This document shows, one piece after another, positions 7,368 through 58,004 of a stretch of 64,000 nucleotides of DNA. The notes under the pieces were generated by a model, which saw only the letters and a program-made list of their open reading frames with translations, did not search any database and was not told the DNA's origin. Numbering within the stretch: the first letter of the stretch is position 1; each line of letters opens with the position of its first letter. A program made the translations under genes and the position numbers. This stretch comes from Tubulanus polymorphus (taxonomy: Eukaryota > Animalia > Nemertea). The DNA is taken from NCBI RefSeq assembly GCF_964204645.1, contig NC_134028.1:14639653-14703652 (forward strand), written 5' to 3'.

Positions 7368-7630
7368 TTAAATCTAAATATGTTAAATTCTTGATTTTAA
7401 CATAAAAAGTAACGAGTAATTAACAAGTGAAAACTTGCGTCGAGAAAACAGTGAATATCTATATTTATATGTGTTAAATTCTTATTTTAACATAAAATTA
7501 ACGAGTAATTAACGAGTTGAAGAAAATATCAGCCCAATAAGGGTAAAAAAATATTTTAAAGCGTAAGGTTTCAGCGAACTCTAACTCTTTTTCAATTTTT
7601 AACTAATTTTAATAAAAATTTGATATATAA

Positions 7631-9962: not shown

Positions 9963-9991
9963 TAAAATTTTAATTAAAATATGTATTATAA

Positions 9992-10345
9992 ATGGAGAGT
10001 AAACAAGCACACAGTGAAAACAACAAATCATTTCTAGATATAATAAAAGATATCACAAATGTCAAATCAGTAGATAATAAATTTAAGAAGTTATCAGAAT
10101 TAACAATTCATAAGAAATATTTAATTACAAATATTGATACAGTTACTAATAGATTTGGTAGTAGATTAGTTATCCACTTTGAATATGAAGGACTGAAAGG
10201 AAATACATATAAATTCAGAACATATTTACCAGATAGATTTAATAGATTATCAAGTGAAGATTTAGAAGAATTAAGTTCAGGTGATTTCTATTTCATATAC
10301 AAAGGTAAGAATGTAAAAGGGCACCATGAAATAGATTTCGAATAA
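9992..10345 (+). CDS. Polinton-associated hypothetical protein (117 aa)
   Basis: Intact ORF; close paralog at 23230-23580. Confidence 0.7.
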   Translation: MESKQAHSENNKSFLDIIKDITNVKSVDNKFKKLSELTIHKKYLITNIDTVTNRFGSRLVIHFEYEGLKGNTYKFRTYLPDRFNRLSSEDLEELSSGDFYFIYKGKNVKGHHEIDFE

Positions 10346-10362
10346 GAAAATATGTAAAATAA

Positions 10363-12361: not shown

Positions 12362-12377
12362 TTTTTTCACTATATAA

Positions 12378-13020
12378 ATGAATATAACTGTTGGGCCGAG
12401 CATATGTTTTGGATTTGATTTTAAACATGAGAAAGAAATAAAATTTAGCATTACTGATGAAATTACACATATTAGAAATATTGCATTTTCTAATTAAACA
12501 ACATTTGAGTATGAAAAAACAATAGATAAAGAAACTTTAAATGTAGAAAAGATTACTAATTTAATTAGAGAATCTTTTAAGATTTTATGAATTAGATGAA
12601 GATTTTATCATTGATGATATTAAAAGAATACTAACTGAAATATATGAAAATGAAACTAATAATACTGTAAATGTTGAAATAATTATAACTAAGATAAATG
12701 AATATTTTGAAGATAGTAATTTTTTTGATAAATAAATGAGTGATAATAAGTGGATAATAACTGGATTATATAATGGAGCATTATTATCAGTTGGAACTGT
12801 TGGTTATTCAATGGTATAAAAAAAAGTATTTAAAATGGGAAGTGTTAATGTTGATAGATTTGATATCAATGATATTTTAAAATTAACATTAGCAGTTACT
12901 TTATCTAATTTAACTATTGATTATTTGGAAAAACAAAAATATATTCCTCCTATATAAATGTATAATTTTTTGCTAAATAAATGGCATCTGCAATTATAAC
13001 GATTATAGGATCGGCAATTG
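12378..13020 (+). pseudogene. Cluster of small Polinton-associated ORFs, including hydrophobic proteins
   Basis: MNITVGPS... (12378), MSDNKWIITGLYNGALLSVG... (12736), MASAIITIIGSAI (12981, truncated); repeated at 24354-26170 and 34800-35846. Confidence 0.65.
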
Positions 13021-13065
13021 CCACTCGCCGTGTCGCGTACTCCCACTAACGGTAAAAGACGCGTC

Positions 13066-13140
13066 CTGTCCTGTGGCAGGGTGGATAAGGTGTTTGACTC
13101 ACAACTGAGAGGTTGAGGGTTCGAATCCTAGTGACACCAT
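13066..13140 (+). mobile_element. tRNA-derived SINE head or tRNA-like pseudogene
   Basis: A-box-like TGGCAGGGTGG and B box GGTTCGAATCC at tRNA spacing; stems imperfect. Confidence 0.45.
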
Positions 13141-23100: not shown

Positions 23101-24996
23101 ACACACCATTATTTACCCATATTCCCAATTACTCCCAATAATATTCATATATATGAATGACATATAAATGAATAAGATATATAAATGAATAACTTCTAAA
23201 ATCAGTTTTAATAAAATGTTATTAAAATTGTGAGCAAACAAGTACACAGTGAGAACAACAAATCATTTCTAGATAGAATAAAAGATACTACAAATGTCAA
23301 ATCAGTAGATTATAAATTTAAGAAGTTAAATGAGTTAACAATTCATAAGAAATATCTTATTACAAATATTGATACAGTTAATAATAGATATGGAGATAAA
23401 TTAGTTATTCACTTAGAATATGAAGGGTTAAAAGGAAATAAATATAAATTCAGAACATATTTACCAGATAGATTTCATAGATTATCAAGTGAAGATTTAA
23501 AAGAATTATGTTTAGGTGATTTCTATTTCATATATAAAGGTAAGAATGAAAAAGGACACCATGATATAGATTTCGAATAAAATATGTAAAATAAATGGAA
23601 GAATTAAAAGAATATAGAATACTTGTTGATTCTAGAAGACTTACAAATTACAAATCTCATAATTTACTAGTGCAATTAGATAGGGAATTTAAGAATTGTG
23701 TAGATTGTAGTTCATGTAATTCTTTTTATAATTTATCGGATAAAAGTCTTGATCATAATTCTTCTATGATTCACGTTAGGAGAAATAATAAATGGTATCA
23801 TCTATTTTTAAGACCAGGATTATATAATTTAGAGACTTTAGCGCAAGAAATTAATAGAAAAGCTAAAACAAAAATGAGCGCAGCTGCTGGATTTGGAATT
23901 AGATTTTTTTAAAGTGATAATAATAATAAATTAAGAACAAAGTTAGGTAATGAAGAACCGCATACATTTATAGTGAGAAAACCATTAGCTAAACTGTTAG
24001 GAATTACACCAAATAAACTTTATTCAAATGTTGATTCTACACCAAATATAATGCCTTTTACACATTTTATATTCATTGCAATTTAACTGATCCTACAAAA
24101 ACATTTGAAGCAACTAAAGATACAATTTGTAATTCTAGAATATTAGATATTTTACCATTAAAAAATGTAAACAATTTGGAACTCAAATAAATTATAATTT
24201 AGCTGAATGTGATTTCAAACCATGCATTCCACATTTTAATAGTTTTAAATTAGAAATAAGAAATCATAATGGATACTTAATTGATTTAAATAATTTTCCT
24301 GTAATTTATGAATTAGTTATAAGATGTAAAGAATAATTTTTTTCACTATATAAATGAATATAACTGTTGGACCGAGTACATGTTTTGGATTTGATTTTAA
24401 ACGTGAGAAAGAAATGAAATTTAACATTAATGATGTAATAACTCATATCAAAAATATTAAATTTTTTAATGAAACAACATTTGACTATGAAACAACAATA
24501 AGTAAGAAACTTTAAATGTAGAAAAGATTACTGATTTAATGAGGGAGTCTTTAAGATTTTATGAACTAGAAGATTTTATTATTGATGATATTGAAAAAAT
24601 AATAACTGAAATATATGAAAATGAAACTAATAATATTATAAATGTTGAAATAATTATAAATAAGATAACTAAATATTTTGAAGATAGTAATTTTTTTTCT
24701 AAATAAATGGCGGATCAGAAGTGGATAATAAATGGATTATATAATGGCGCCTCACTATCAGTTGGAACTGTTGGTTGTACAATGGTATTAAAAAATGTAT
24801 TTTGAATGGGAAGTATTAATGTTGATAGATTTGATATCAATGATATCTTAAAATTAACATTAGCAGTTACTTTATCTAATTTAACTATTGATTATTTAGA
24901 AAAACAAAAATATATTCCTCCTATAAAAATGCGTAATTTTTTTACTAAATAAATTGCATCTGCAATTATAACTATTATAGGATCAGCAATTGTTAA

Positions 24997-25795
24997 AGGC
25001 CGAGGAGCAGTATAAAAGCCCAATCAAAGATGTCAAAGATGGCAGTACCCATGAAGCAAGAGTGCAGTAGAGAGCTCCAACGGTTGAAACTAGAAATCTC
25101 CTATTTTCTCTGTCAGTTATCCGATTTTGACCCTCCTTTTTGTCAGACATATGTATTAATGTGTAATATATTCATTTCTGCAGTCAAAAATGTGTTTTAG
25201 GCCCTCCTCTACGAGAAATTAAGCTTTTTAGTTGGTATTTCCTTCAAAATTTGAATCTTTGAATGACATAGAGGGAGGAGTTATCCGGTGAATTAGTATA
25301 GCTCACAGAGCACAGTAACAGTAATTTGATACCTATAGTCATCAGTATACATAAACAAAACATAGCCTCATTCATAGTACCAAAATTTGGCAACATCAAA
25401 ACTTTTTCTATGGTCAATGGATCAGTCTGAAATTTCGTACACTACTTTAGCTATCAACTATCAATGTTGTGTCCAAATTTCATCGAAATCGGATAAAAAT
25501 TAATGATTTTCAAAAAATTTGAAATGTCTCTAAAATCTTTAATCTTGGCCCTATCTCTACAAAAAAAGATCGCTAGCATCAGATTTTCATTCCCACTATG
25601 ACATTATTTAAAATTAGTTCAGAACTTAATATGAAAACTTTTATGAATTTGTCAAATTTAACTGTGTGTGACCTGCTTTTCTGTTGTGAGCCAACCTCGC
25701 TCACTCTAAACATTATAAACAAGATACTGTAAAAGTAGGACGGCCGATCTCAAGTGTTTGCCACCCGGTTAACTAGCATCCATACTCCTCGGCCT
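24997..25795. mobile_element. Non-autonomous Kolobok-type element
   Basis: TIRs AGGCCGAGGAG / CTCCTCGGCCT with TTAA TSD; splits the MASAIITIIGSAIV|NALAF ORF that is uninterrupted at 35406. Confidence 0.85.
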
Positions 25796-26889
25796 TTAAC
25801 GCTTTAGCATTTACTGGTGGCGGGTATTTATTTAAGCATATTGATAAAAATAGTTCATTAGGAGAACAAAGAAGACATAACTTAGCATTAGAGAAATATT
25901 ATAAAGCTGCAGAAGAATACAGAGAAAAGAGACAAAACTATATGGATTATATCAATAAAGAATTATACAATCAGCAAATTACACATTGAAAATCTCAATC
26001 AGTTGATGAAGATATGAGTTTATATAACGCAGTAACAAATAAAGAAAAATTACATCTATATCAACCTAAATTATCAGATTATTATGTATAATTTATGAAC
26101 AGAAGAAATATGAAATAACTTGGATTTTAGGTGGAACAGTTATTGTTATATTTGTGGCATATAAATTTACTAATTAATTATATATTATTTTTTGTTAAAT
26201 AAATGGGCGATAAAGTTGATAATAATGATATTATTCCTCATGATATAAATAAAACTAAATTAAAAATGTAGTTGGAAAAACAAATATTAGAATTTGAAAA
26301 TGATTTAAAAGAAAAAATATTTAAAAATTAAAATTATATAATATTTTGTTATTAGTGGTTCGGTTACAATTAGTTCTGTTATAACATTTTTAGCAATATT
26401 CAGTCCATTAACTCCTTTAGCTATATCAATTGGTATGTTAGGGTTAAGTTCAAGTGTTTTAACCGTTCAGAATTAAATATAAAAAGTAACAAAGAAAAAA
26501 TAAAATGTAATATAGAAATTAATAAATTAAAAAATACACTAGATTATATAATAAGTTTAAATGGTAATATAACAATTAAAGAACAAGATAAATTATTAAA
26601 AGAATTAATTATTAATTTTTACTATATAAATGGCAGATAGTTTTCCAAAAGCTTTCCAATATAATAAATCATTTAAATATAATATTCCTGCTATAGATTT
26701 TAATAAAAATATCACATATAGAAATGAAGTTTGAAATTCATTAATTAATTTAGATATTTATGTTACTGAAACTAATAATTTTAATATTAAAATGGAAAAT
26801 TAATTTCATGTATATTTAATTAATTTAAAAAAAATGAAAGATGAAAAACAATGGTTATTTAAATCTAATATGAAGTATTGGCAGAACCA

Positions 26890-27442
26890 ATTGGCAGAAT
26901 TTTCATTATTATATGATTTTATTGATAAATTTAAAACTGTTACTATTAGTGCAAATGATGAAATAATCAATGAGAATAATAACTTCCCAAGAAAATCTAT
27001 TAAAGGTATATTGATATTTATTACAATTGCAACATATTCTAATGGTGCAATACAAGTTGATGATTATAATAATCCTAAAATAACAAAAGTAGAAATAACT
27101 ATCGAAGGTATAGCAAATAAAATATTTTGCCAAGGAATGAGAATGATAGATCAGTGGCCAGAAATTAGAAAACATTTTGTGAATGAAAAAAATTTTTTCA
27201 TCTGAAAATTGTTATATTAATCAAATTGATTATTATACCGGTAATAAATACGCATTATGGTTAGATTTTTGAACAACTGAAGATAATTTATTACATGGTT
27301 CTGGGTAGAAATTACAGAACACTAAAGATGGAATACAATTATTCATGAAAAAGGAAGTTTAAATTTCAAAATGCACATTTATATCATATCTGACGCGCAA
27401 TTAAATATTATAAATTCTCAATTGAATAGTGTTATGTATTAA
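26890..27442 (+). pseudogene. Putative major capsid protein, C-terminal part
   Basis: NPKITKVEITIEGIANKIFCQGM...ALWLD...NLLHGSG...NTKDGIQL; paralog of 58005-59472. Confidence 0.6.
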
Positions 27443-27520
27443 AATTTTAATTTTAATAAAAAATTCTATAATAAATGGAAGGAGGAATATATGAAATACA
27501 AAGCCCAAGTGAACTGATAT

Positions 27521-27523
<3 letters not shown>

Positions 27524-27582
<59 letters not shown>
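27524..27582. repeat. (TA)n microsatellite
   Basis: About 29 TA units. Confidence 0.97.
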
Positions 27583-27585
<3 letters not shown>

Positions 27586-28263
27586 CGTAATACCTTATGA
27601 TGAATATAGTAAGTATTTTGGAGAATACTTTAATGAATTCAAATATAGAATAAGTAAAATAGATAAATAATAAAAGTGGTGTTGTTGATATTTTAAGTAA
27701 TGAAATTGATAATTATGTTATTCCTTCTACATCTAATAATGTTATACCTTTTACATCTGATAATGTTTTACCTTCTACATATGATAATGAAATTATATTA
27801 GATTATAGTGAAAATAGAAATTATTGTGGTTATTGTAAAGGTGAATTTTCAAACAGTCCATCAAATTGGAATAACCATATGAATACAGCTGTACATATTA
27901 CTAATGTTATAAAACGCGTTGGTTTAAGAGAATTTACAGAACACCCATTTAGATATGTAACAAAGTTTGTTTCAAATAATAAATTGCCCATGGGCAAAGT
28001 GTGGTATACCTTGAAAGCTAGAGGTTGTTTGGAATAAGGGCATTGCTTGAAAAATCTTTTAAATTCGTGACTTCAAAGTTCTAGAAGTTTATATTGTATT
28101 TTATCTTTCTTAAAGAATTATTTTATAGTCAAACAAGACCAAAGATATACATTTGTTTGCGGTCCACGTCCAAAATTTTGTAGGGTACAGGTAGGCGCGG
28201 CAGGGAAACTATTTTATATTTTCAAAAAAATATGTTTCACAATATGAAAAAATATTCAAATAA

Positions 28264-29450
28264 GGCCATCCCAAAATAATAGTCTGTTTGCCGTAACACC
28301 GACTCAACCTTTCATGACACTTTTCATGAGTCGGTAGGTAGGTAGAAATTTTATTTTACAAAATTTTTGGGCAACAAAAAAAAATTGCACCTTTGGGCTT
28401 TTTTACATGGAAACAATATCGCAAAAAATCATCTACGTTGTGCGCGGGAAATTTGTCTAATAGCGTAGAGTTCAAGAATTATTCCAAAATTATAACTTCG
28501 TCCAGAGTGTCATCTCTGTGTTAAAAATGAAACAGTACATTGAATATGTGCGCGCTTTTACGTTAAAGTCTATCCCAGTAGTTATGACCGCGGTGCATCA
28601 AAGAGTTGTTACACTAACATATCAGGATCCCTGTGGTTTTTATCACTCAGCCTTACGAGTAATTGAGGTCAAGCGACTACTGCATTCAAGAGTGAATAAT
28701 ATACCATCAACTGGCCATTCATTAAAGGATATAAAATTCCAATTTTTATAATTTTACAAAATCCTTTCTTGGATTTTTAGTTTCATTTTGGGAACAATCA
28801 TGTCATGTGGCAAATTCAATCTGATTGATTTTGTACATCTATTAACTCCTCAGAGTGTGAGCATATATAATCTGGAATCATCTCATGAGTCGAGTGGTGT
28901 TGTTTTGCTTGAAACACCATCTAAATATAATCTTTCAACTTGGAAATTGGTTTTAACACTTCATAATGTAAACACTGACTTCAGCATCCAGCGAAAATAT
29001 TCACTCTTGAATGCAACAAGACTTCAAAACTGAATTTTCATTGCTTATTACTTCATTTTCTTGGATTAAGTGTGGAAAAGTTTTGCTCTTTATTCACTCT
29101 TGCCTGTAACCATAGCAACAAGCAGCTGGGGTCCAGCGAGTCAGCGATGCTCATGGTGAGTTTGACCACTTAAAGCTGTCAGTATCAATTAAATTGTTGT
29201 TGATACTGGCTCTTTGAGAGTGAAATGCCGCGGTCATAACCACTGGGATAGACTTTACCAGCTTTAATATAGTCACTATTAGAATGAATGGCAGCTTATT
29301 GGAACGCTGCCAGTTTCCTAAGCCACATGTCAAGGCATGTTTTCACTTGAATTCAAACATACGTAGCTCATACGTCAAATAGTTTCCACTCGTACCTCTG
29401 AAGTCGGGTTGGTCGGGTTACGGCAAACAGACCATTATTTTGGGATGGCC
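28264..29450. mobile_element. Non-autonomous PIF/Harbinger-type element
   Basis: TIRs GGCCATCCCAAAATAATAGTCTGTTTGCCGTAAC / GTTACGGCAAACAGACCATTATTTTGGGATGGCC; 3-bp TSD TAA. Confidence 0.85.
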
Positions 29451-30940
29451 TAAAATTCATATGATATCACATATCAGAGGGTGGCTGAATATCGGGTCTT
29501 GGAAACCTCTTCCAATGTTGGCCGCGGAAGCCAAAATACCGGTACAGAAGAAACCGGCTATTAGATCGTTTTAAATCCTGGAATTTACCAGTACAATTTT
29601 CAGACCTCATAGTTTGCTGCTTAGTATTTTCAGGTCACAAGAAATTACAATTTATTACAAATTCTATCTAACAGAAAACACAGCGCTCATCTGCTACGAT
29701 TATTCAGCCTATTTTCATGTCGAACGTGCACGCGTTACAGCATCACCCTTAGTAGTGTACTGTACGAGCTTGTGTGTGTATCGTGTAGCACTCCGTGCGC
29801 ACGTGGAGGCCTCGTGTAAGTAAATATTCGCTTACACCTCAATCAAAACAATCACCGGGTATTAAAATGAAACAATACCTATGGCGGATGTGTGAAATAA
29901 TTACATCCTCACCAGCAATGAGCATTTGAAATTAACACGTATACGGCACCTAGTCCAATGAAACGTACGCCATTCTATGGCTTTCCCATGATTATTTTAG
30001 TAGCGCCGGAATTCCCCGTATATCCAAAAAAACAGCGAATCCCATTCGCTCGTAGAGACGACGCCCCCCAACCGAGCTCATTGCAATTTTATACGCGAGA
30101 GCTAAGAATTTTCCCGCCAAAAACAGTTTTTCGTAGAATTTTAACTCAGTTGACCATGTCATCGACGGAGGTTCGCCATGTCTCGCATCGATTATACGTC
30201 GTTTAAGCTGAGAACTAATGAAACAAATGCACACATAAAAAAACGTACCGCGATTTTACATGAATTGGCTCGATGCCAACATCATATCGCTGACAAAGGT
30301 AAACCAAAAAAGTAAGTGGTAAAGATTTATATGCAGATTTATTAGGCGAATTTTTATCAAAGGAACCTGAACTCAGTAAAGATGAATTAGATTTAACTGA
30401 TGCTAATAGAATATTAGGATCAAACATTGTAATTCAATATTAAGGTCAAACACTAATGAGTAAGAGGATAAGGAAAATATAGTTACTGGAAAGCTTATTG
30501 ATAATGAAGATTATATAGATACAGATTGGATGAAACGGAAAGTAGTGACTATTGATGACCCGGTAGATAGGTTGAATAAAATGTTAGTCCGATGATGAAT
30601 TGGAGGATGGTGATGAAAATGATGTTAGTTATTACAAACTCACATAATATATTAGTTGAAAATGAGTAATTGTAATATGGCGTTTTCGTACCAGAGCACG
30701 AGGCACTAACGAGAACGGTCGGCAGCGTTGTGCTATAAGAGTAGTACAGTGATTGCGCAACCAGCCATGCTCGGATAGATCGATGCAGTGAGGCATTGAC
30801 GAGAACGGTTGATAGTGTATTTGCTATTTACAGGGGGAAGGTGACCGCGCTCAGATGATCCAGGTTTATTTAATTGTTTAATGAATTAAATTTTTTTTTT
30901 GCTTTTTTTAATCGCCACAAGTAAATGTTTTCCCTTATAA

Positions 30941-31897
30941 ATGGGAGATAGTGAGTACCAGACAGAAAACAATAATGTTAATAAAAAATCAATATTATTG
31001 TGCATATTGTAAAAAATTCATCGATAAATCTAATCATGAAAAAACTGCAAATCATATAAAAAATGTTATAGATTTTGAAACTCCAGAAAATTCCAATGAA
31101 AGAAAAGGACGATTAGAAAATATGAATGTGGATGAAATAAAATGTGAAGTTTGTAACGAATTTGTAACAAAAAGGAATTATAAAAGACATCTCGAATCGC
31201 AAAACACAAACAAAATTTAAGTAATAATGTTTTAGGAACAGATTATTTTGATGATAAACCTCAACAAGTAAAAAAACCAGTTTTAAAAACTAAATCTATT
31301 TCAAATAAACCTTATATGGAAAATGTTAGAAATTATATCAATTCACTAGAAATAAAAGATGTAATTGAAATTTTAGAAACATTACGTAGTAAAATTGGTC
31401 CTGCAGCTATTATATCTAGATTTTTTAAAGGTACCACAATAGAAGATTATAGTAAATTTATTGAAATAATGGAAAAAACAATGGACTTTATTACAGTGAA
31501 TATCCAAAAAATAGTATTTCTGGGAAAGTTAGTTTTATGAAATCAGGAGAAAAATGGATTATAATATTCAAAAACACTCTGAAGAAATAATTTCAAAAAC
31601 ACAAATAAAAGAGAAGTTAGAAAAAATATTCAATGAATTTAAACGAAAAATTGAAGAAAGATATTTTCAGGGTTCTGGCTTATCATTAAATGAAATTATA
31701 TTTTTAGATTTAAATGTTTATAATACAAAAAGGAATAAAGCATCAAAAAGTAAAACAATGTTTAAAAATGATACAAACTTTACAACAGAAAAGGATATTA
31801 AAGCATCATCTTATATTAAATTACCAGTTACAACAAAAGCAGTAATAAATGTTAAAAAATAGGATAATAAATGTTTTCTATGGTCAATTATTAGTTG
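30941..31897 (+). pseudogene. polB: pPolB N-terminal region with C2H2-type Zn fingers
   Basis: YCAYCKK...H...H and KCEVCNE...RHL; FQGSGLSL, ASSYIKLP...KAVINVKN-DNKCFLWSII typical of Polinton PolB N-termini; ends at a deletion junction. Confidence 0.75.
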
Positions 31898-32811
31898 TGG
31901 ATGGAAAAAATAAAAAGAATATTACTAGGCATAAAAGAAATAAGAAAATCTATAGAGTTAGAACTAAATTAGGGTTTGTAGATGTTACAGAAGATCATAG
32001 TTTAATTAAACGAAATGGTGATGAAATAAAACCAACTGATGTAAAAATTAGAGATGAATTATTACACAAAAGATTTTTCCAAAGAATGGATCATATGTCA
32101 TTTGATGAAATAATTGATAATATTTATAATATGGAACCCAAAACATTAGAAGAAAAAGAATATTTTATTAAAGGATTTTTTATGGGTGATGGTTCAGCAG
32201 GTGTGTATAATTATGTTAGTTGCAATAAATATTGTGGGTATTTATGTAATCAAGATTTGAAATTATTAGAAAGAATTAAGAAATATTGTGAAAAAGTTTA
32301 CCCAAATAAAACATTTAGAATCGTGGATATTATGAAATCATCAGCAGTTTATAGAATATACATGTATGTAAATAATCCAAAAGATTTTGCAATGAAATAT
32401 AATGATGAATTCTATATTCCTGCAATAGTTAAAAGTAATACTTCAACAAAAGAAAAGATAGTGCCAGATTGTGTATTAAATGCAAAATATAATTTAAGAA
32501 AATGGTTCTTCATTGGATTCTATGCCGCAGATGGTGCTAAAGATTTACGAGTTCTCCAGTAATAACATTTGCACAAAAAGGAAAAGTTGCTATATCAGGA
32601 TTAAATATATTATGCAATTCATTAGGTTTTAATGTGAATATTGCATTGATTAAGTCTAAACCAAATTGTTTCAATCTAAAGGCATGTAGAAAAAGAATTA
32701 ACAGATGAAGTTAAAGATTTATTTGAAATATATAACCCAACAGATTATGTTTATGATTTATCAACTGAAGGTGGAACATTTAACTGTGGATTTCCATTAA
32801 TTTTTCTCAAT
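31898..32811 (+). mobile_element. Intein with LAGLIDADG homing endonuclease (N-terminus deleted, frameshifted)
   Basis: Block B VDVTEDHSL; block C FIKGFFMGDGS; block E FFIGFYAADG; block H-like QKGKVAISGLNILCNSLGF; blocks F/G DYVYDLSTEGGTFNCGFPLIFLN followed directly by extein TDAYILKIK. Confidence 0.9.
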
Positions 32812-33261
32812 ACGGATGCATACATACTAAAAATCAAGACAAATGACATAAAAAAAGACTTAAAAACATTAAAACATCATTTTGACTTTAGCAATTATCC
32901 AAAAGATCATGAACTATTTAGCAATGATAATACAAAGCAGCCTGGTAAGTTTAAAGATGAACTGGGGGGTGATGAAATGATTGAATTTGTTGGGATAAGA
33001 AGTAAAATGTATAGTTATAGAACAAAAGATCATGAAGCTAAAAAGTTAAAAGGAATAACAAAGCATGTGGTTGATAAACATATACAATGATATAAAGTGT
33101 TTATATAACTCAATTGTAATGAAACATAAAACGAATTGTTTAAGATCAGAAGATCACGAGATGTATATTAATGAAGTTGAAAAAAACTAGCTTAAATCCA
33201 TTCGACGATAAAAGATATATTTTGGGTGATGGAATAAAAACATTACCTTATGGCCATTTAA
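32812..33261 (+). pseudogene. polB: pPolB C-terminal extein
   Basis: TDAYILKIKTNDIKKDLKTLKHHFDFSNYPKDHELF...PGKFKDELGG...KKLKGIT, closely matching ORF 9285-9962 downstream of its TDS. Confidence 0.92.
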
Positions 33262-33435
33262 AAAGAAAATCAATATCATCATACTCGAAATCACTATTCT
33301 TCATTTTCATTTAATTGTTTAGGTTCCTTCATTTCATTTTTCTCATTTAAATAAAGTTCTATATTATTCCACATTTCATCTAGCTCTCTTTGTTTCTTTT
33401 TGTTCGTTAATTCATCTAATGGAATTATAATATAA

Positions 33436-34460
33436 TCAATCAAAGGAATCATAATTAATTGAATCTGTTATTTTATTATCCACATGATATTTTAATATGT
33501 TTGTGAATGTTTCTTTTATATTTTTCATATCTTCTTCTGTTAATTTAGGTTTTTTATAATAATCGTTAAATAATAAATATAAATACATTTTCTTTTCTTT
33601 TGTGTTAAATGTTGATGGAATAATTGTTTTTATTATATCTTTTTTAGTTATTTCCCCATTTTTATTTTCTATCATTTTCATTTTTTTAAGCCATTGCTTA
33701 TATTCTGGTGTATGATCTTCCATTATTTTAAAAATTTCATCTAGATATTTTAATTTTGTCTCTATAAGAATATCTCCTAGTTTTTTCATCACCCCATAAA
33801 TTTTTTTGCCATCCACATTCATTACAAAATATCACAGGATCTTCTTGTCTTAAGTACACATAAATACATTGTGGGCATTTCTTGGCAATAGATCTTCATT
33901 AAGTTTTTGGTATTTTCTTACACGTTTTCTTTATGTTTTATTATTTTATTATGTAGATTTGAATTACTTGTTGTAATAATCAATTTACAATATTTGCAAT
34001 AATATGTTTTTCTTACTAATTCATTATATTGTTTTTCTAACTGTTCAAGTGTTTCTTCATTATCTGGTAATGTTTTCTCGTATTTCATTTTTTCTAATAT
34101 ATTATTTTTTCTTTCATTGAATTCTGCTTCAAATTTATTAGAAATTTTATCTATATGTGCTTTACGAAATTGATGATTTTCCCAATCTTCTATTTTTTCA
34201 GGGCTATATTTTATTCGACAAGGCTCACAGAAATGATCTTTTATATTATTCTTGTCATCGAATAAGAAAGGTCTTTTCCAAATAATTTCAGGTTCAGTTT
34301 CAACAGAATTATTATTACTTTCGTTACCATCAACATTAACCGTTGAGTTATTTATTTTACACTTCTCTGAATGTTTTTTAACATAATTTCTTGAGAATAA
34401 TTTATTACAATTTGGGCAGTTTATTTTAGGGGGTTTATAATTTTTATCATTTTTTTCATA
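33436..34460 (-). pseudogene. Polinton-associated multi-Zn-finger protein
   Basis: Antisense frames with INCPNCNK, HFCEPCRI...H and YYCKYCK motifs; C-terminal ORF 33436-33822. Confidence 0.5.
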
Positions 34461-34489
34461 TGTCGAGCCATTTTACTTTTTCTTTGAAG

Positions 34490-36260
34490 TTCACACACTT
34501 TTTTACACACTTTTATATTTATTGCAATTTAATTGATCATACAAAAACATTTGAAGCAACTAAAGGTACAATTTGTAATTCTGGTTTATTAACTATTTAC
34601 CATAAAAAAAATGTTAAACAATTCGGTACACAAATCAATTATAATTTAGCTGAGTGCGATCTTAAGCCTTGTATTTCACAATTTAATAATTTCAGATTAG
34701 AAGTAAGAAATCATAATGGATACTTAATTGATTTAAATAATTTTCCTGTAATTTATGAATTAGTTACAAGATGTAAAGAATAATTTTTTCACTATAAAAA
34801 TGAATATAACTGTTGGACCGAGTATATGTTTTGAATTTGATTTTAAACGTGAGAAAGAAATGAAATTTGATATTAATAATGTAGTTACACATATTAGAAA
34901 TATTGCATTTTCTAATGAAACAACATTTGATTTTGAAAAAACAATAGATAAAGAAACTTTTAATGTAGAAAAGATTACCGATTTAATTAGAGAGTCTTAA
35001 AGATTTTATGAATTAGATGCAAATTTTATCATCGATGATATTAAAAAATAATAATTGAAATATATACAAATGAAACTAGTAATGAAATAAATGTTGAAAT
35101 AATTATAACTAAGTTTACTAAATATTTTGAAGATAGTATTTTTTTTTCTAAAGAAATGGCGGATCAGACGTGGATAATAACTGGTTTATATAATTGAGCA
35201 TTATTATCAGTGGGAAGTGTTGGTTATACGATGGTATTAAAAAAAGTATTTAGAATGGGAAGTATTAATGTTGATAAATTTGATATCAATGATATTTATT
35301 TTGTAATTAACATTAGCAGTAACTTTATCTAATTTAACAATTGATTATTTGGAAAAACAAAAATATATTCCTCCTATATAAATGCATAATATTTTTACTA
35401 AATAAATGGCATCTGCAATTATAACTATTATAGGATCGGCAATTGTTAACGCTTTGGCATTTACTGCTGGTGGATATCTATTTAAACATATTGATAAAAA
35501 TAGTTCAATAGGAGAACAAAGAAGACATAACTTAGCATTAGATAAATACAATAAAGCTGCAGAAGAATATAGAGAAAAGAGGCAAAATTATATGGATTAT
35601 ATCAATAAATAATTATATAATCAGAAAATTACACATAGAGATTTTCAATCAGTTGATGATGCAGTGAGTTTATATCACGCAGTAACAAATAAAGAAAAAT
35701 TACATCTATATAAACCTAAATTATCAGATTATTTTACCCCAAGTAGTGAACAGAAGAAATATGAAATAATTTGGATTTTAGGTGGAACAGTTATTGTATT
35801 ATTTGTTGCTTATAAATTTACTAATGGTAATTTCTTTTCTAAATAAATACATGATAAAGTTGACAATATTGATATTATCCTCATGATATAAATAAAACTA
35901 AATTAAAATTATATTTGGAAAATCAAATATCAGAATTTGAAGATGATTTAAAAGTTAAAAAGAAAAAATATTTAAAAAGTAAAATTATATATTATCTTAT
36001 TATTAGTAGTTCAGTTACAATTAGTTCTGTAATAACATTTCTAGCATTATTCTCACCATTAACACGTTTAGCTATCTCAATTGGAGCTTTAGGTTTAAGT
36101 TCAAGTGTATTAACCGGCATAAGTTCAAAATTAAATATAAAAAGAAAAAATAAAATCTGATATAAAAGAAATTAATAAATACATTAGATTATATAATAAG
36201 TTTAGATGGTAATATAATAGTTGAAGAACAAGATAAATTATCACAAGAACTAATTAATTA
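34490..36260 (+). pseudogene. Third copy of minor capsid C-terminus and small ORF cluster
   Basis: FYIYCNLID...NGYLIDLNNFPVIYEL; MNITVGPS; MASAIITIIGSAIVNALAF; hydrophobic ORF 35915-36160. Confidence 0.75.
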
Positions 36261-36280
36261 TTAATTTTTTTATTATATAA

Positions 36281-37532
36281 ATGGGGTTTCCAAAAGCTTT
36301 CCAATTATAATAAATCAATTAAATGTAATATTCTTGCAATAGATTCCAATAAAAATATTACATATAAAAATTTAATTTTAAATTCATTAATTAATTTAGA
36401 AATTTATGTTACTGAAACGAAGTTTTTTATTTCTAAAATGGAAAATATATTTCATACATATGAAGTCACTTTTACTCGAGAAGAATATCGTATATATAAA
36501 GTAAAATCTAATATGAAATATATGCAAAATCAATTAAATTTTGCTGTTTATTGTGCAACAACAGGGTGTGGTATAGGTTGGAATGATCATTTAAATAACA
36601 AAAATTTGAATTATTCTGATTTAAAATTATTTCATACGTATTTTCAAATCAGAACTATATTAAACGAATTTGAATGCCCTTTGCCTGGATCTAATTATAC
36701 TAAAGAATTGGATAATAATATTAATCTATCTAAGTTTTATAAAATATGTAATGAATTTAATATAGATATTTATTCCGATTTTAGAGCGCATGGTAAATTT
36801 CAAGGTATTGGTGAACAGTATGAAATAAAAAGAATTGATTATATGCATACAATTGGAGCTTATCATAATTATGAAATTGATAATAATAATGGTTGGATTG
36901 ATTTCATTTTAGAAAATAGTGAAGGTTTTACAAAATCAGGTATACAAAGAATAAATCAATCTATAAGAATATATTTAATTTGTATATTAGGTGCACAAGT
37001 TGAAACAAGATCCCCGATAGTTGGAAATGATAGTACTTCATTTGATACACAGAAACAATTTAAAGTTTTATTTGAAGATTCTATTCATAATGATAAGAAT
37101 AGATCGATTCCAGAAAACATTGTAAGATATCAAAATTATTTAGATAAATTACATATTAGATTAAACTATTGTAAAGGCCCTAATTTATTAATTATTTCTA
37201 ATGATTTAGTTTTAAAAATGGGAAATATAATTGGTTATAATAATCTAATTAAAACTGCTACAGTCAATAATAAGTTTCGATTAAATGATATAAATAAAAA
37301 GATTATTACTGTTCCAAAACTAATGGAAGGTGAAAAAATTAAAAAACATATTCAGTCAACAGAAACTAAAACTAAAAATATTAAATTGGATAATGATTCT
37401 AAAATAAAAAAAGATTACAATACTACAGAAAATATAAAAACTGATAATATTCAACATGAAATAATTAAAAGTAATAATGATAATAAATCACATGAAAATA
37501 CTAAATTATCATCGATGATATTACTTGTATAG
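36281..37532 (+). pseudogene. Conserved Polinton-associated protein of unknown function (364-aa open portion 36438-37532)
   Basis: QNQLNFAVYCATTGCG, HTYFQIRTIL..PLPG, SIRIYLICILGAQ..RS; N-terminal paralog at 26630-26890. Confidence 0.65.
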
Positions 37533-37669
37533 GAATCGTAATAGGAGGAATATTTTATTTTAAATTTTAATTGTTGTAATGGGTCCAAAAATCGCATTTT
37601 TGCCTACAAATGCGGGTGTAACTTAGACACGAAGTCATGCTTGCTACTAACTTAAGATAAGACATAATA

Positions 37670-38150
37670 TAAGACATAACAAACACACATAGATTTATCA
37701 TTACTGAATCAAATATATATAATAAATATGTGAGATAAATAAATCTATGATATTTATTACATCTATGTGTGTTTGTTATGTCTTTATTATCTTTAGTACT
37801 TTTAGTACTTTGAGTACATAAAGAATAAATCTTTATTTTATTAGTACTTAGAAAAATAAATATATAAATAATTTTATATATGATAAATCTATGATATTTA
37901 TCATTATTGAAACAGTAATATATAATAAATATGCGTGATAAATAGATTTAATTATTGAAACAGTAATATATAAAATCCATCAGATGAATAAATATAATTA
38001 TTGAAACAGTAATATGTATATATATTTATGTCTTTATTGTCTTTAGTAGTTTAGTAGTTTTAAAAATAATTTTATTCACTACTAATAAAATAAAGATTTA
38101 TTCTGTATGTACTAAAAGTACTAAGCCTACTAAAGACAATAAAGACACAA
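37670..38150. repeat. AT-rich nested inverted repeats
   Basis: gacataacaaacacacatagat (37673) is inverted at 37761-37782; about 70-bp arm 37775-37845 is inverted at 38081-38150. Confidence 0.75.
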
Positions 38151-38270
38151 GGGGTATTATATTCATATTTTAAATTACTTTTCTGATTCTAATTCTGAAA
38201 ACAATTTGAGCCATGCATCTTTCTTGTGATCTTCTTTCACCTAATAGTTTAGTATGATAACCAATACTAT

Positions 38271-40790
38271 TCAAACCGCGGGCAATAAAACCAAAATAAT
38301 GAATTATCGCGGGCGATAAAACCAGAATATTGAATTGTCGCGGACGACAAAACCAGACTAATGAATTGTCGCGGGCGAAAAAACCAAAAAAAAGAATTGT
38401 CGGGGCGACAAAACCAAAATAATGAATTGTCGCGGGCAATAAAACCAAAATAATGAATTGTCGCGGGTGACAAAACCAAAATGTTGAATTGTCGCGGGTG
38501 ACAACACCAAAATATTAAATTGTCGCGGGCGACAAAACCAAAAAAAAATTGTCGCGGGCGACTAAAACAAACTATAAAACCAAAATAATGAATTGTCGCG
38601 GGCGACAAAACCAAAAAAAAAGTTGTCGCGGGCGACTAAAACAAAATATAAAACCAAAATAATGAATTGTCGCGGGCGACAAAACCAAAAAGAAGAATTG
38701 TCGCGGGCGACAAAACCAAAATAATGAATTGTCGCCACAATCGACAATCACCACAATCGTAGTACATGTAATGAAATACAACTTTGCAATTGATCATAGT
38801 AACAAAACATGCCTAGGTACCAATCTAATAAGGAAATACTAAGCCATTCTACTATTCAGCGCCCCCTGGTGACTATATGGAATAACTAATGTCCTTAAAA
38901 ACTCACCACAATCATAGACGATGTCATGAACTACAACTTTGCAATTGATCATGGTAACAAACTATGCCTAGGTACCAATCTAATAAGGAAAAACTAAGCT
39001 TTTCTACTATTCAACGCCCCCTGGTGTCTATATGGAATAACTAATGTCCTTAAACACTCACCACAATCATAGAAGATGTCATGAACTACAACTTTGCAAT
39101 TGATCATGGTAACAAAATATGCCTATGTACAAATATAATATACCGATACTAATACTAGCGATATAATACCCCCTGATGGCCACATACAAAAACCAATGAC
39201 CTTGAAACTCACCAAAATCATAGAACACGTTATGGGCTACAACTTTCCAATTGAATATAGTAACACAATATGCTTAGGTATCAATTTGATGTAGAAAAAC
39301 TTTTTCCCACCTACGAATGAGTACTGATGACACCAAGATGGCCGCCAATTGCGTCATAATTGGCTGATCAAAATACCTGTCCCAGGTATAAAACATCCCT
39401 CTCTAAAAAATACCCATCAGCAATTGCAATGAGAAATGGCAAACCAAATTGACATTTTCAAAATTTCCCACGAAAACTTCGAAAATGTTTAAAAAGTGCT
39501 GATTTTGGCAAACAACAATGGCTGCCAGTCGACCATCTTGAATCTGACAGGGCCAGTTTTTGGGCTGACGATGTGTCTAGGGTAGATACATGTATAAACC
39601 AAATATCAAGACATTACCTTGAAGCGTCTTCAAAACTGGATTCCGTCTATGGATGGACGGACGGACGAAAAGTGAACGCAATAGCCCGCTGGGACTAAAG
39701 TCCCAAGTGGACTGATAAAGAATTGTCGTGGGCGACAAAACCAAACTAATGAATTGTCGCGGGTGATAAAACCAAAATATTGAATTGTCACGGGCGACAA
39801 AACCAAACTAATGAATTGTCGGGGGCGATAAAACCAAACTATGAATTGTTGCGGGCGATAAAACAAAAATATTGAATTGTCGCGGGCGATAAAACAAAAA
39901 TATTGAATTGTCGCGGGCGACAAAACCAAAATGTTGAATTGTCGCGGGCGACCAAACCAAAATAATGAATTGTCTCGGGCGACAAAAACAAAATATTGAA
40001 TTGTCACGTGCGACAAAACCAAAATAATGAATTGTCGCGGGCGACAAAACCAAAATAATGAATTGTTGCGGGCGATAAAACCAAAATAATGAATTGTCTC
40101 GTGCGACAAAACCAAAATAATGAATTATCGCCGGCGATAAAACCAAAATATTGAATTATCGCGGGCGATAAAACCAACAAAAAAAATTGTCGCGGGTGAC
40201 AAAAACAAAAGATAAAACCAAAATAATGAATTGTTGCGGGCGACAAAACTAAAAAGAAGGATTGTCGCGGGTGACAAAACCAAAATAATGAATTGTCGCT
40301 GACGATAAAACCAAAATAATGAATTGTCTCGGGCGACAAAAACAAAATATTGAGTTGTCACGTGCGACAAAACCAAAATAATGAATTGTCGCGGGCGACA
40401 AAACCAAAATAATGAATTGTCGCGGGCGATAAAACCGTAATAATGAATTGTCGCGGGCGATTAAACCAAAATAATGAATTGTCTCGGGCGACAAAACCAA
40501 AATAATGAATTACTGCGGGCGATAAAACCAAAATATTGAATTGTCACAGGCGATAAAACCAAAATATTGAATTGTCGCGGGCGACAAAACAAAAACAAAA
40601 AATTGTCGCGGGCGACAAAAACAAAATATAAAACCAAAATAATGAATTGTCGCGGGCGACAAAACTAAAAAGAAGGATTGTCGCGGGCGACAAAACCAAA
40701 ATAATGAATTGTCGCTGGCGATAAAACCAAAGTAATGAATTGTCGTGGGCGATAAAGTCAAAATATTGAATTTTTCGCGGGCGACAAAAT
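38271..40790. repeat. ~31-bp minisatellite array
   Basis: Unit GAATTGTCGCGGGCGACAAAACCAAAATAAT with internal TTGTCGC/GCGACAA palindrome; split by the HINE at 38735-39714. Confidence 0.95.
38735..39714 (-). mobile_element. HINE family 1, second (3'-truncated) copy
   Basis: Reverse complement of 10509-11500, including TCCCAAGTGG end, (GGAC)n and the internal tandem units. Confidence 0.85.
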
Positions 40791-41039
40791 CAAAATCATT
40801 GTTTTCTCGCGTTATTTTAGTTTTGTCGTTTTGTCGTTATGTCGCCCTCATTTGCATATTCGTCTTATCAGCCACTATACTAAAGCCTTAAGGTCGCGTA
40901 AAACTCTTACTCGATAAACACTTCAAGCGACACAGCGAACGATCTCCTTTCCTCCACAGCGAACGCTTACTCCGAATGTCAAGTGTGAGTCCAGCATACA
41001 GATAGGAGTGTGTTGTATACTTATATTTAGTAAATACGT

Positions 41040-48640: not shown

Positions 48641-48710
<70 letters not shown>

Positions 48711-48774
48711 GGGGGTTTTAAGTATTTAGGTATCTAATACGTATCTAATACGCATCTAATACGTATTAAGGTGT

Positions 48775-49179
48775 CTAATACGTATCTAATACATAAATGC
48801 TTAAAATACCGCATTTTATAAATTTATATTCATAAGGAAATTGTAGTCTCAGTAATAATTTTGAACCTTTATTACTTTTAAATTCATTCATATATTCATC
48901 ATGTAATTCAGTAGGTATAATTTGATTTTCTTCCAGAGATTGTTGCATTGATTTTCTATCTTTAATGTAGAATAAAACTAGAAATCTAATGTTTTCTCTA
49001 AAATCTTTAACAATGGAATAATATTTTTTATTTAAAACCCATTTTGTTATCCCAAAATGTCTCCCCCGAGCTAAATAACATAACTCGCTTTCTCTAACTT
49101 TTAAATCATGTAAATTTGCACAATCATCTATAATGAATAATGTATTTGATCCTTTATAAATATCAATTGCAATTTTCAT
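48775..49179 (-). pseudogene. A32/FtsK-like DNA packaging ATPase, C-terminal half
   Basis: Walker B TLFIIDDC and arginine-finger motif GRHFGI; Walker A region deleted. Confidence 0.8.
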
Positions 49180-49189
49180 GGTTTAGTTA

Positions 49190-50371
49190 GTATTATCTTT
49201 TTGATCTTAAATATTTCTTCAGTAAAATTTGGAGTATAACCTTTATAAAATGTTTTTCGATATTTAAATATTCCTATTTTAAATTTAGTTTCTCCAAAAT
49301 TCATCCTCCCCGGCAGGGATTCGAACCTGATGGCATCGAGATTGCCACGGCAAGAAACCCTGCCATAATCGACCGTGTGCGCAGATACATGCGCAGTTCA
49401 GATGATGTGATTTTTAGCCAATCAGAAATCCCGTTTTATTTTAGCCCGGGTTTTCCCATTTATAGTTCTTCCTTGAAATTTGCCTCAACGATTATACAAC
49501 AAGCAATCTGATTGGTGCCGCCAGTTTTCGTTCGGAAAGCTGCGCATGTACCTGCGCACACGGTCTACTGATGCAGGGGTTCGTGCCGTGGCTGAGTGTA
49601 GCGATGCCATCAGGTTCGAGTCCCTGCAGAGGGAGGATGTCCAAAATTATGCGGTACAAACGCGCCATATAAATTATTCCAAACTATTTCTGAATTTTCT
49701 TTCTTTCTAGCTTGTATAGGTTTCATACCAATACTTGAATGTTTAGAATTATTTTAACCTTTCACTAAATCATCTAACACATCGATATATTGATATCTTT
49801 CATTAGCAGTTAAATATTTCCACATTCTAGTTTTAAATGTTTTTTTAAATCTTTCTATAATAGATACTTTTTTATCTGAATGCGTTGAAAAATAATCTAC
49901 ATCGTTTTCGGATGATAATGTTTTAAAATGTTTATTATAAAATTCCTTACCTTCATCAAATTGTATCTTACCTGGAATAGCTTCTTAAAATATTGATTTA
50001 AAAGCATTTGTTACTTCTATACCAGTTTTATTTTTGATTGGAATTGACCATGCGTATCTGCTGAATATATCTATAACATTTAATATCCAAAAATATCCTT
50101 TATTATGTTCTTCTAAGTTCTTCATGTCAATCAAATCTGCTTGCCATTGTTGATCAATAAATGAAACTATAACTTTTCTTGTTAAATAATTTTTATCCAT
50201 TTTCTTATGGATTTGATATGTGGGTTGATTTTGTAACCATAATTTTAATTCATTATATTTTATATTTTCATTATCAGATTTAATTTTATCCCATAATTCT
50301 GAAACACTAGAATATGATACTTCACTCTCTGGGTTATAATATAAATCTCTTAAATATTGTTCTTTTTTCAT
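49190..50371 (-). pseudogene. Retroviral-like (c-)integrase
   Basis: YYNP, QWQADLIDM, VIDIFSRYAW, IQFDEGKEF, IIERF, HSSIGMKP; internal stop at 49985 and MITE insertion. Confidence 0.92.
49302..49639. mobile_element. MITE with 9-bp TSD (Mutator-like) containing an inner inverted-repeat module
   Basis: TIRs CATCCTCCC...GGGATTCGAACCTGATGGCATCG / CGATGCCATCAGGTTCGAGTCCC...GGGAGGATG; TSD TCCAAAATT; inner IR GACCGTGTGCGCAG / CTGCGCACACGGTC. Confidence 0.85.
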
Positions 50372-51713
50372 CTTATTTTAATCCATAAATAATAATTTAG
50401 ATTTAGTTTCAATGATTTTATCATTTGACTTATTTTCTGGTATAATAGGTTTATCATCGGAATCATTATTGTTATTAAATTTAGATTTATATATTACACC
50501 AGAGAATATAATAACTGTGATTAACCCAATTGTAATATATAAGTAATTATTTCTTCCAGTATTAGAAGAATTAGATGGATTATCATTCGAATCAATATCA
50601 GATAATTTCTGTGATTCATTTATATCAGTTAATTACTTTTTCTTAGCTCTTTTTAATTCTGCAGATCTTTTACCCAATTCCCTTGCCCATTTAATTTGTT
50701 TTTCGGATCTAGGTTTCTTCTTAATATCATAACTCATTTATTTTAGTTAATTGTTGTTCTGATTCTCTCTGTTTCGCCGTGTGGGTGTCGTACGGCACCA
50801 TCCGTTTCGTTCTTACCTGATTTATATTCTATAGGTTTGATATTCGAAAATGTTATGACACCAGTAGAGATTAATGTCATAACCGATCCTAATTGAAATG
50901 AAGTGTATCCAACCCATTTTTGTAATTCATTCATAACTAAGTCGTCATTTTTTAAATCAATATATAATTTATTTTCATCGATAATTGACATTAACCGGTT
51001 ACATAATTTTGAATAACATTTGACAATACCATCAAAAATAGAATCATTTATTCTAGCTAATCTAGCTTCTTCATATATTTTGAAATGTTTGATTACTTCA
51101 TCTGGTTTCATATTATCTAATTCTTGAAAAGTTATAATTTTCCCAATAAACTCTTAAGATTTTCCACCAGCAATCAATAGTTCAAGATGGTGCTTACATG
51201 TTAAATAGTATTCAAAATCAATATTATTATCAACTTCAGCACAATTAGTAACAACTGTATCATTATTATCTGTAATACCTAAATCCTCAATTGTCTTTTC
51301 AATATCGGTATTATTCTTATTAGATTTCTTTGGCATTTATATTAGAGAAAAAGCGAAAAAATATTATACTTATTCTTCAAATGAAACTAGTAACTCTTTA
51401 GTTAATACTAGCTTAGTTAAGTTAAAGAATTCTAGTATTAACTAGATTTGAATAGCTATTTGAAGATAAAGAATTTCTATTCAATTCTATTCAAAATATA
51501 AAGTATTCTCTTTTGAAAAGAAATAATCGATTTTGAATACAAATAAAAATAATGGCTAGTTGAAGATATGAAATTTTTAATATATTTTATTTAAATTTGG
51601 ATTTAGATTATCTCACTTCTTTGGTCTATCTATAGGAGCAATTACTATAACTGTCCAGATAAGTCATTTCGGATCCTCGATAATAAATCATATTCCATAA
51701 TTGTATAAATCTT

Positions 51714-52315
51714 TCAGCTTTGATTATTTGATAATTCATTATCAATTTTATCACGTTTAATTCTATTTTCTATTTTCGATAAAGGTTGAATATTCTTCCA
51801 ATTACATATTGTTTTTATTTCAGATTCATTTTCTATTGATGATAATGGGATAACATGATCTAACTCCCAATATTCTCCATGATTCTCAAATTTCATGTTA
51901 TTATCGAACTGATATTCTATCCATGCATAAAAAAAGTCTATAGAACACCCTAAATAACCAATTGATCTATCAGATTTTATATAATTTTTGAAAACTCTGT
52001 TCAAACTAGTTCTGTTAGTATGCTTTAATTTGAATAATGGATCTGAATTATATTTTACTTTTTGGTAATTATTGATATGTTCACGGTTATCTTTTATCCA
52101 TTCTCTCATGTATTCTGGGTTATTTTCTCGATATAGTGCATTATTTTGTTTCCAACATGTTTTACAAATATTTTGTAAACCATCTTTGTAAAACTTTTGT
52201 TTATAATATTCTGAAGATTGTTTATTTATTCACACTTAGAACATATGTTATGATAAATATTTATAACACCAGCGTTATTTGTAATATTAATGATTTGTGG
52301 CTGTTTACTTTCCAT
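51714..52315 (-). pseudogene. HNH endonuclease (giant-virus/phage type)
   Basis: YLGCSIDFF..WIEYQF...M..ENHGEYWELDHVIPLS...NWKNIQPL...EN..K; N-terminal CxxC pairs; start TAAATG at 52315. Confidence 0.75.
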
Positions 52316-57975: not shown

Positions 57976-58004
57976 TTAGATATCATCAATATTAACTATA
58001 TATT

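Follow-up and report, generated by a model that had tools for sequence, protein, structure and literature searches.

We analyzed a stretch of 64,000 nucleotides, referred to here as the window, which is AT-rich and consists of a mosaic of decayed Polinton copies, other transposons, and tandem arrays. Positions 31,896-32,811 of its plus strand were confirmed to be the remnant of a LAGLIDADG intein in a protein-primed family B DNA polymerase (pPolB) of Polinton type. The features of this locus and of the related elements in the window are as follows:

7955-9881, plus strand: decayed intein-free sister pPolB, with the empty site between 9,431 and 9,432
30912-31895, plus strand: N-terminal remnant of the pPolB, with a zinc-finger-like start, in several frames, ending just past NKCFLWS
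31896-32811, plus strand: intein remnant, with an N-terminal Hint part carrying block B, a two-motif LAGLIDADG part, and a C-terminal Hint part carrying blocks F and G
31897-31898, plus strand: deletion joint of the window copy, where the matches to residues 165-257 and 1244-1629 of the intact relative P0001 abut
31984-32004, plus strand: block B TxxH (VTEDHSL), from frame translation and alignment
32173-32193, plus strand: first LAGLIDADG motif, block C (GFFMGDG), from translation, alignment, and a weak Pfam match
32515-32535, plus strand: second LAGLIDADG motif, block E (GFYAADG), from translation and alignment
32,565-32,600, plus strand: block H stretch, in a different frame from the LAGLIDADG motifs
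32743-32811, plus strand: blocks F and G, with DYVYDL at 32,743-32,760 and a penultimate residue that is Leu, not His
32812-33257, plus strand: C-extein, comprising Thr+1 and the remaining polymerase (KxY and PFDDKRY motifs) with frame breaks, from tblastn with P0001
34501-36461, plus strand: further genes of the same element family, 84-89% identical in DNA to 12,079-13,020, 24,056-24,996, and 25,796-26,815
48778-50377, minus strand: fragments of an integrase and an A32-like ATPase, from another Polinton copy (rve E 5e-4, Pox_A32 E 0.011, both below cut-off)
57303-57479, minus strand: retroviral-type integrase fragment, from tblastn against the integrases of four IMG/VR pPolB loci (best E 1e-8)
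7,600-13,100; 23,200-28,100; 30,900-37,600; 48,700-52,300; and 57,300-60,700: decayed family pieces, from DNA self-match

Three-frame translation placed all the motifs named in an initial sequence-only reading of this DNA (VTEDHSL, the two LAGLIDADG motifs, a block H-like stretch, the terminal Asn, and TDAYILKIK) where that reading had put them. The terminal Asn is encoded at 32,809-32,811 and is followed by Thr and the polymerase sequence TDAYILKIK. The same reading had proposed that block A and most of the N-extein were deleted and that the frame was broken at two later points. We indeed found the deletion at about 31897 and breaks near 32,550 and 32,690, together with a break near 31,910 that had been missed, making three within the intein. 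By tblastn against P0001 (residues 165-257 and 1244-1629), about 980 codons are gone from the window copy, including the exonuclease domain, motifs A and B, the YxD, and approximately the first 53 intein residues. The N-terminal splice junction is absent from this copy because the deletion removed the YxD and the intein start. Judged by these lesions, the window intein copy is dead.

The three single-frame pieces of the remnant align with the P0001 intein at 64, 60, and 62% identity. With the single-frame piece 31,897-32,547 as query, the homolog search lay well outside what chance would give: at E ≤ 0.001 it retrieved 159 proteins, 381-2000 aa in length, with P0001 first (E 2.6e-77, 63% identity). 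Pfam matches on the window pieces were weak (LAGLIDADG_3 at E 0.003 and 18.2 bits, below the 22.5 cut-off), and Intein_splicing gave no Pfam match on them. The expected Hint and LAGLIDADG profiles are both matched by intact relatives, inside PF03175 polymerases, while the window pieces stay below the cut-offs.

Eight protein clusters at 90% contain an intact intein of 337-354 residues in a pPolB with both junctions (xxD/S...N/TDS, the slashes marking the junctions): P0001, P0002, P0003/P0124, P0005, P0157, P0158, P0159, and P0167. In all eight, Ser1 stands directly after the motif C Asp and in frame, which bears out the placement behind the YxD of motif C first suggested for the insert. The insertion site, YxD/TDS of family B polymerase motif C, is that of the pol-c allele. 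Block B TxxH is found in the window and in all 12 aligned proteins, and the terminal Asn followed by Thr in the window and all the relatives aligned. Nine aligned pPolB inteins, with pairwise identities of 35-90%, keep the block B Thr and His, both LAGLIDADG acidic residues, the block F Asp, and the terminal Asn. A penultimate His, which is common in class 1 inteins and not obligatory, occurs in six of these nine, the others having Ser, Lys, and Lys, the window Leu, and Mimivirus Lys. P0001, P0003, P0005, and the window copy are thus without it, and block D is variable. Pfam found PF03175, Intein_splicing, and LAGLIDADG in one chain in P0001, P0005, and P0157; PF14528 scored above its cut-off in P0001, P0002, P0005, P0137, P0157-P0159, and P0167, whereas the window piece, P0003, and P0124 did not reach it.

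An AlphaFold model of P0137, built from a 50-row alignment, reached a pLDDT of 91. Its best Foldseek matches were the TliVMA intein (E 5e-17, TM 0.62), PI-PfuI, and PI-SceI, with I-DmoI for the nuclease part, and the predicted structure is a Hint fold with an inserted endonuclease. P0137, P0138, and P0143-P0154 come from a 55-member cluster on contigs of up to 825 kb and are ORFs of 362-365 aa that consist almost only of intein; six begin with a common leader of 11 residues, the last of which is the motif C Asp, and in ten the frame closes 4-7 residues past the terminal Asn. From this layout, the P0137 family may be a free-standing intein-endonuclease that left the polymerase and multiplied.

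Among the 120 matches listed of the 159, the best five were protein-primed polymerases, and 113 of the other 115 carry PF00136, the domain of RNA-primed PolBs. Family B polymerases account for 118 of the 120, one of the remaining two being a topoisomerase II and the other unassigned. Related inteins were also seen outside PolB, in P0117 (a type II topoisomerase by Pfam), P0366, and P0387; the lineage also reaches non-allelic sites. Many of the polymerases also carry an Endonuclease_7 domain, located elsewhere in the chain than the intein. A search with residues 900-1693 of P0001 returned 1,881 proteins, and 6 of the 120 full-length relatives listed were filled (P0001, P0157, P0158, P0159, P0167, and, in part, P0170), so that the intein is a rare trait in full-length relatives. 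In a 50%-cluster search, none of the 142 new proteins was classed as pPolB (126 were RNA-primed and 16 unclassed).

The host polymerase of the window copy is recognizable on both sides of the intein. Residues 165-257 of P0001 match 31,554-31,895 (tblastn, E 9e-19), and a zf-U1 Pfam match (E 1.9e-5) lies at 30,912-31,217. On the other side, the C-extein shares 74% DNA identity with the intein-free sister copy and 83% identity with P0166 over 92 columns. The sister retains a PF03175 match (E 4e-7) at 8,339-8,899. The DNA match between 9,431-9,880 of the sister and 32,811-33,253 (74%, 451 bases) begins one base before Thr+1, and therefore the insert ends exactly at the D/T of motif C. The polymerase tree joins the window C-extein to the sister copy and to three empty proteins, with a support of 100.

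Within the 64 kb, one Polinton-type family is represented by at least four or five decayed pieces, 74-89% alike and interrupted by other repeats. The genes at 34501-36461 are putatively capsid-like; no Pfam match to a double jelly-roll capsid or a protease was obtained in the window, and a single-sequence fold of the capsid candidate piece was uninformative (pLDDT 44). The integrase fragment at 57303-57479 lies about 520 bases beyond a family gene at 58,002-58,556, which matches 26,896-27,445, and this proximity links the element family to an integrase. The integrase at 48778-50377 matched an IMG/VR integrase by tblastn at E 1e-20. These integrase and ATPase fragments belong to other copies in the window, outside the intein-bearing one, and are tied to it by shared genes. 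No long inverted repeat pair bracketing the intein-bearing copy was found within 27,000-39,000, and we therefore refer to it as a Polinton-type remnant and not as a complete element.

Read depth, at 80% likeness, was taken from X5, a whole-genome run of organism A. The intein was covered 148-263 times (mean 202); the lowest flank bin had a depth of 10.6, and the beginning of the C-extein one of about 553. The ratio of intein to lowest flank depth is about 19-fold, a rough figure since this is an edge bin of the stretch and the likeness of most reads is 80-95%. These depths indicate that the intein is multi-copy in organism A and present in roughly one-third of the related polymerase copies. 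At the deletion joint, 494 X5 reads (215 + 279) leave the window, and the deletion is therefore not general; contigs from X2 and X4 likewise enter the intein at the joint with different upstream sequence.

Among the relatives, two clusters hold both filled and empty alleles, with exteins 97-99% identical. Filled P0124 and empty P0127 are identical at 740 of 746 extein residues, and their polymerase columns are identical on both sides of the site. The P0003 cluster (121 members) has, among 15 listed, three filled copies, one empty copy, two intein parts, and nine not covering the site. The P0157 cluster (136 members, on contigs of 57 kb to 1.0 Mb) has 7 filled and 4 empty full-length copies among 15 listed. 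We compared these two classes, leaving out 4 shorter copies. Their exteins are 96.9-98.7% identical between classes, and the filled copies are closer to one another (98.6-99.7%) than to the empty ones. Of about 1,190 residues, 10 show fixed differences, and all of these fall between -7 and +44 relative to the site; two of six further majority differences also lie beside it. Ten random positions fell within 51 residues in 0 of 200,000 draws, a test devised after seeing the data. This clustering is as flank co-conversion from a donor family would predict, and the survival of cut-resistant empty alleles would fit it equally; with the differences clustered at the site, a site-specific process is needed under either reading. 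The seven filled precursors, of 1,537-1,539 aa, keep full open frames. Exteins abut exactly in the empty alleles, as seen for P0127 against P0124, for P0284-P0286 and P0288 against P0157, and for the window sister. The empty P0157-family alleles P0282, P0284-P0286, and P0288 have Cys at +1 in place of the Thr of the filled ones, with further changes close by, and are candidates for homing-resistant sites.

Filled and empty copies thus stand side by side, and the intein has likely spread between transposon copies. The dead relic first described was understated in this respect: the window copy is dead as claimed, but it belongs to an intein lineage with intact, polymorphic copies in several Polinton families.

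We built a polymerase tree of 61 rows from which the intein columns were removed by a 60% fill filter and P0180, which had no parsed site, was omitted. It required 11 changes for 11 carrier rows, against a mean of 10.3 after shuffling, and the carriers are therefore scattered over the polymerase tree. The intein tree contained 42 rows and was unrooted, with no outgroup; 29 RNA-primed inteins were left from 109 after thinning. In this tree, 12 of the 13 pPolB intein rows form one clade (100/99) among giant-virus PolB inteins, and its neighbor is a trio of RNA-primed inteins (92/90). The window piece groups with P0001 and P0136 (100/98). The intein tree partly follows the extein tree, with P0158/P0159 joining P0003 and with P0002, P0004, P0157, and P0170 together. 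P0005 departs from this pattern: its polymerase sits on a very long separate branch and its intein is nested with that of the window (98/93), which indicates sideways movement between distant families. The P0005 intein, a main-clade intein in a very different protein-primed polymerase group, is 48% identical to that of P0001; the polymerases of this group presumably carry a VSR-like insert.

The block G motif typical of the clade was found in 15 IMG/VR contigs, all of them with RNA-primed PolBs and 13 labeled as giant-virus MAGs. When 13 IMG/VR rows were added, the Polinton clade stayed whole (100) and fell between those rows and the other viral inteins. P0167, which with P0293 has a Mimivirus-like block G, was excluded from the clade by 200 of 200 bootstrap trees, but a single clade is not rejected by the AU test (p 0.24). 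The P0167/P0293 intein is a possible second jump and not an established one. The unrooted trees fit an origin of the intein in large DNA viruses, and we favor viruses as the donor because the allele is far more diverse in large DNA viruses and is present in archaea (PMC549080, partial text). Ogata et al. regard a jump between distant genes as implausible for plain homing (PMC549080, partial text). Further searches bore on the range of the lineage. The window piece had no related locus in viral or metagenome contigs, and P0001 had none in metagenome contigs. Alignment A1 retrieved four IMG/VR pPolB loci, all four with an empty site, and pattern scans of viral contigs returned RNA-primed PolBs only. 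An ESM Atlas search with the P0001 intein gave only leads below 0.9, a PDB sequence search two weak intein matches, and a phage search one unannotated 484-kb record at 27%. No RNA data set was listed as a carrier, a result that weighs neither for nor against any of the readings below.

Taken together, we consider it highly probable that the window holds a dead pol-c homing intein in motif C of a Polinton-type pPolB, in a eukaryotic and likely animal genome, and that its intact relatives, predicted to be self-splicing, likely spread by cutting empty copies. By analogy with class 1 chemistry, Ser1 would attack the upstream bond, Thr+1 would take over, and the terminal Asn would cyclize; excision would then restore YxDTDS and give a working polymerase. 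The insert splits a catalytic motif, so that a filled element could copy itself only with splicing or with a helper in trans. The LAGLIDADG domain would cleave the unoccupied site of a second Polinton copy, into which repair would then introduce the intein plus short flanks. With less certainty, the lineage may have left the RNA-primed PolB of some large DNA virus once, or perhaps twice, and may later have moved sideways between Polinton families. We find the case evenly balanced for the broader proposal that inteins colonized animal germ-line DNA via Polintons, after one or perhaps two pol-c jumps from giant viruses, that homing continues between integrated copies and distant families with conversion of short flanks, and that one branch without a polymerase multiplies free-standing.

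A tentative case can be made that the intein is real but has ceased to home in host chromosomes, having entered each family in a free viral phase or long ago, and that filled copies have since multiplied solely by riding along when Polintons transpose. In favor of this account, the copy in the window has decayed, and the P0157 filled copies are closer to one another (98.6-99.7%), as one invasion followed by amplification gives. However, both LAGLIDADG acidic residues are kept in 9 of 9 aligned pPolB inteins at 35-90% identity, and polymerase columns identical on both sides of the site in P0124 and P0127 make at least one event very recent. Rather improbable, in our view, is an ancestral pPolB intein with many exact losses, in which there was no transfer from giant viruses or transfer went the other way. 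The change counts are blind to gain versus loss, the tree is unrooted, and the agreement of P0158/P0159 with P0003 and among P0002, P0004, P0157, and P0170 in the intein and extein trees would follow from such descent. It accords poorly with P0005, a long-branch polymerase whose intein is nested with the window's (98/93) at 48% identity to P0001, with flank differences solely beside the site, and with an allele far more diverse in RNA-primed PolBs (113 of the 120 matches listed) and known as an archaeal pol-c allele (PMC549080, partial text). Highly improbable is an intein-derived domain that no longer needs splicing, in filled polymerases that are inactive and copied in trans by empty helpers. 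Empty copies do coexist in every family examined in detail, and the short P0137 ORFs keep the intein with almost no polymerase. Against such helpers, divergent carriers conserve Ser1, the block B Thr and His, the block F Asp, the terminal Asn, and Thr+1, and the seven precursors of 1,537-1,539 aa remain open throughout.

The intein would stay real, and the animal-chromosome claim would fail, if the host were not an animal or the sequence were viral or protist contamination. We consider this unlikely. The scanned ORFs of the window yielded no housekeeping gene of a host, as such an origin would allow, but the 64 kb are a mosaic of Polinton copies, Harbinger-type transposases (DDE_Tnp_4, E 1e-17), MADF, a hAT fragment, and P2RX7_C (E 1.7e-12), by Pfam, together with tandem arrays. 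P2RX7_C and MADF domains, we assume, point to animals. The nearest empty polymerase type is similar to Atlas clusters in which eukaryotes make up 92-100%, with Arthropoda commonest, two coral proteins are among the listed P0001 relatives, and reads cover every bin of element and flank. Contamination had been named early as an explanation to exclude, and the region proved to be repeat-rich and eukaryotic, not a viral contig. The host is very probably an animal.

Animal Hedgehog/Hint domains have the Hint fold in common with inteins; unlike the inteins described here, they have no homing endonuclease, no insertion between two exteins, and no empty alleles. Among the closest described systems is the Mimivirus (APMV) PolB intein (P0043), which is 41% identical to the window piece. 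It has the same YGD/TDS site, Ser1, block B Thr and His, terminal Asn, Thr+1, and two-motif LAGLIDADG domain (PMC549080, partial text). Its host protein, however, is an RNA-primed PolB (PF00136), whereas here the host is the protein-primed PF03175 polymerase of an integrating element, and the two have little in common beyond a short motif. The nearest group in the 42-row intein tree (92/90) is formed by giant-virus inteins with a GFPLI-type block G (P0007, P0011, and P0057; IMG/VR L005-L019), which share this unusual C-terminal motif; they are about 42% identical and have RNA-primed hosts, and when further giant-virus rows are added, the Polinton clade falls between them and the others.

Invertebrate iridoviruses, which infect animals, also carry inteins in a family B polymerase (PMC5784728, partial text) and thereby provide a precedent for splicing in animal cells. 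These are lytic large viruses and not chromosomal; two of the rows start with Cys and have other block B and G motifs, and they are absent from the trees presented here (PMC5784728, partial text). Endogenized giant-virus polymerase inteins of Klebsormidium, Tetrabaena, and Hondaea are likewise of viral type and on nuclear scaffolds, but these hosts are algae and a protist, and in the partial text the inteins sit in whole viral genes, with no Polinton, animal, or spread between transposon copies (PMC10710043). Nuclease domains inside Polinton polymerases are known as HNH and VSR inserts (PMC10748475 and PMC11071308, partial texts). Krupovic et al. suggest, citing Jeong et al., that such inserts stem from intein invasions (PMC11071308, partial text); the words intein, homing, and LAGLIDADG have 0 occurrences in Jeong et al. 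(PMC10748475). In the partial texts, these inserts have no Hint domain shown, belong to other nuclease families, and leave motif C unsplit (PMC10748475, PMC11071308).

Inteins are stated to be absent from metazoan nuclear genomes (10.64898/2026.09.14.751524, partial text). The partial text of PMC5784728 gives 0 inteins for Metazoa and 0 mentions of Polinton or Maverick, and lists the iridovirus PolB inteins. The terms Polinton, Maverick, Metazoa, animal, and protein-primed are without match in the supplement of PMC10710043, and no intein term occurs in PMC8502044 or 10.64898/2026.06.19.733378. No such intein is described in the partial texts of PMC7765530, PMC12220804, PMC13768754, PMC5718144, and PMC3671162. 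Searches of the open literature brought up no description of a Polinton, or of any protein-primed PolB, that carries an intein. The chemistry and the allele are known; the type of protein that hosts this pol-c intein is new, and the kingdom in which it occurs is likely new as well.

If true, the presence of an endonuclease intein in chromosomal elements that an animal carries in many copies would qualify the rule that inteins are absent from animals, and the cause of the barrier (splicing, homing, or germ-line access) would become testable. The rule would be qualified for a virus-like element rather than for a gene of the host, and animal cells are already a place where iridovirus inteins splice. 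Such an intein would also document, directly in sequence, that genes have passed between giant viruses and Polintons at the active site of a polymerase, bridging RNA-primed and protein-primed enzymes that have little in common beyond one short motif; this is the kind of jump that Ogata et al. regard as implausible. Filled and empty alleles in one assembly are a natural record of homing and resistance.

Several other repeats were noted in the window. Positions 10,500-11,700 and 38,744-39,724 are mutually inverted copies of a repeat with an internal 154-155-bp tandem array, which may resemble Helentron-associated non-autonomous elements. Tandem arrays of 31 bp with a GC-rich core occupy 38,277-38,735 and 39,715-40,811, split by the 155-bp repeat element. 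On the minus strand, 51,717-52,229 is an open frame of 171 aa near Polinton fragments, with no Pfam match above cut-off and what we take to be an HNH-like C-terminal motif. Finally, nested inverted repeats (56 nt at 82% and 30 nt at 97%) were observed at 28,242-29,472, which is probably a small DNA transposon.
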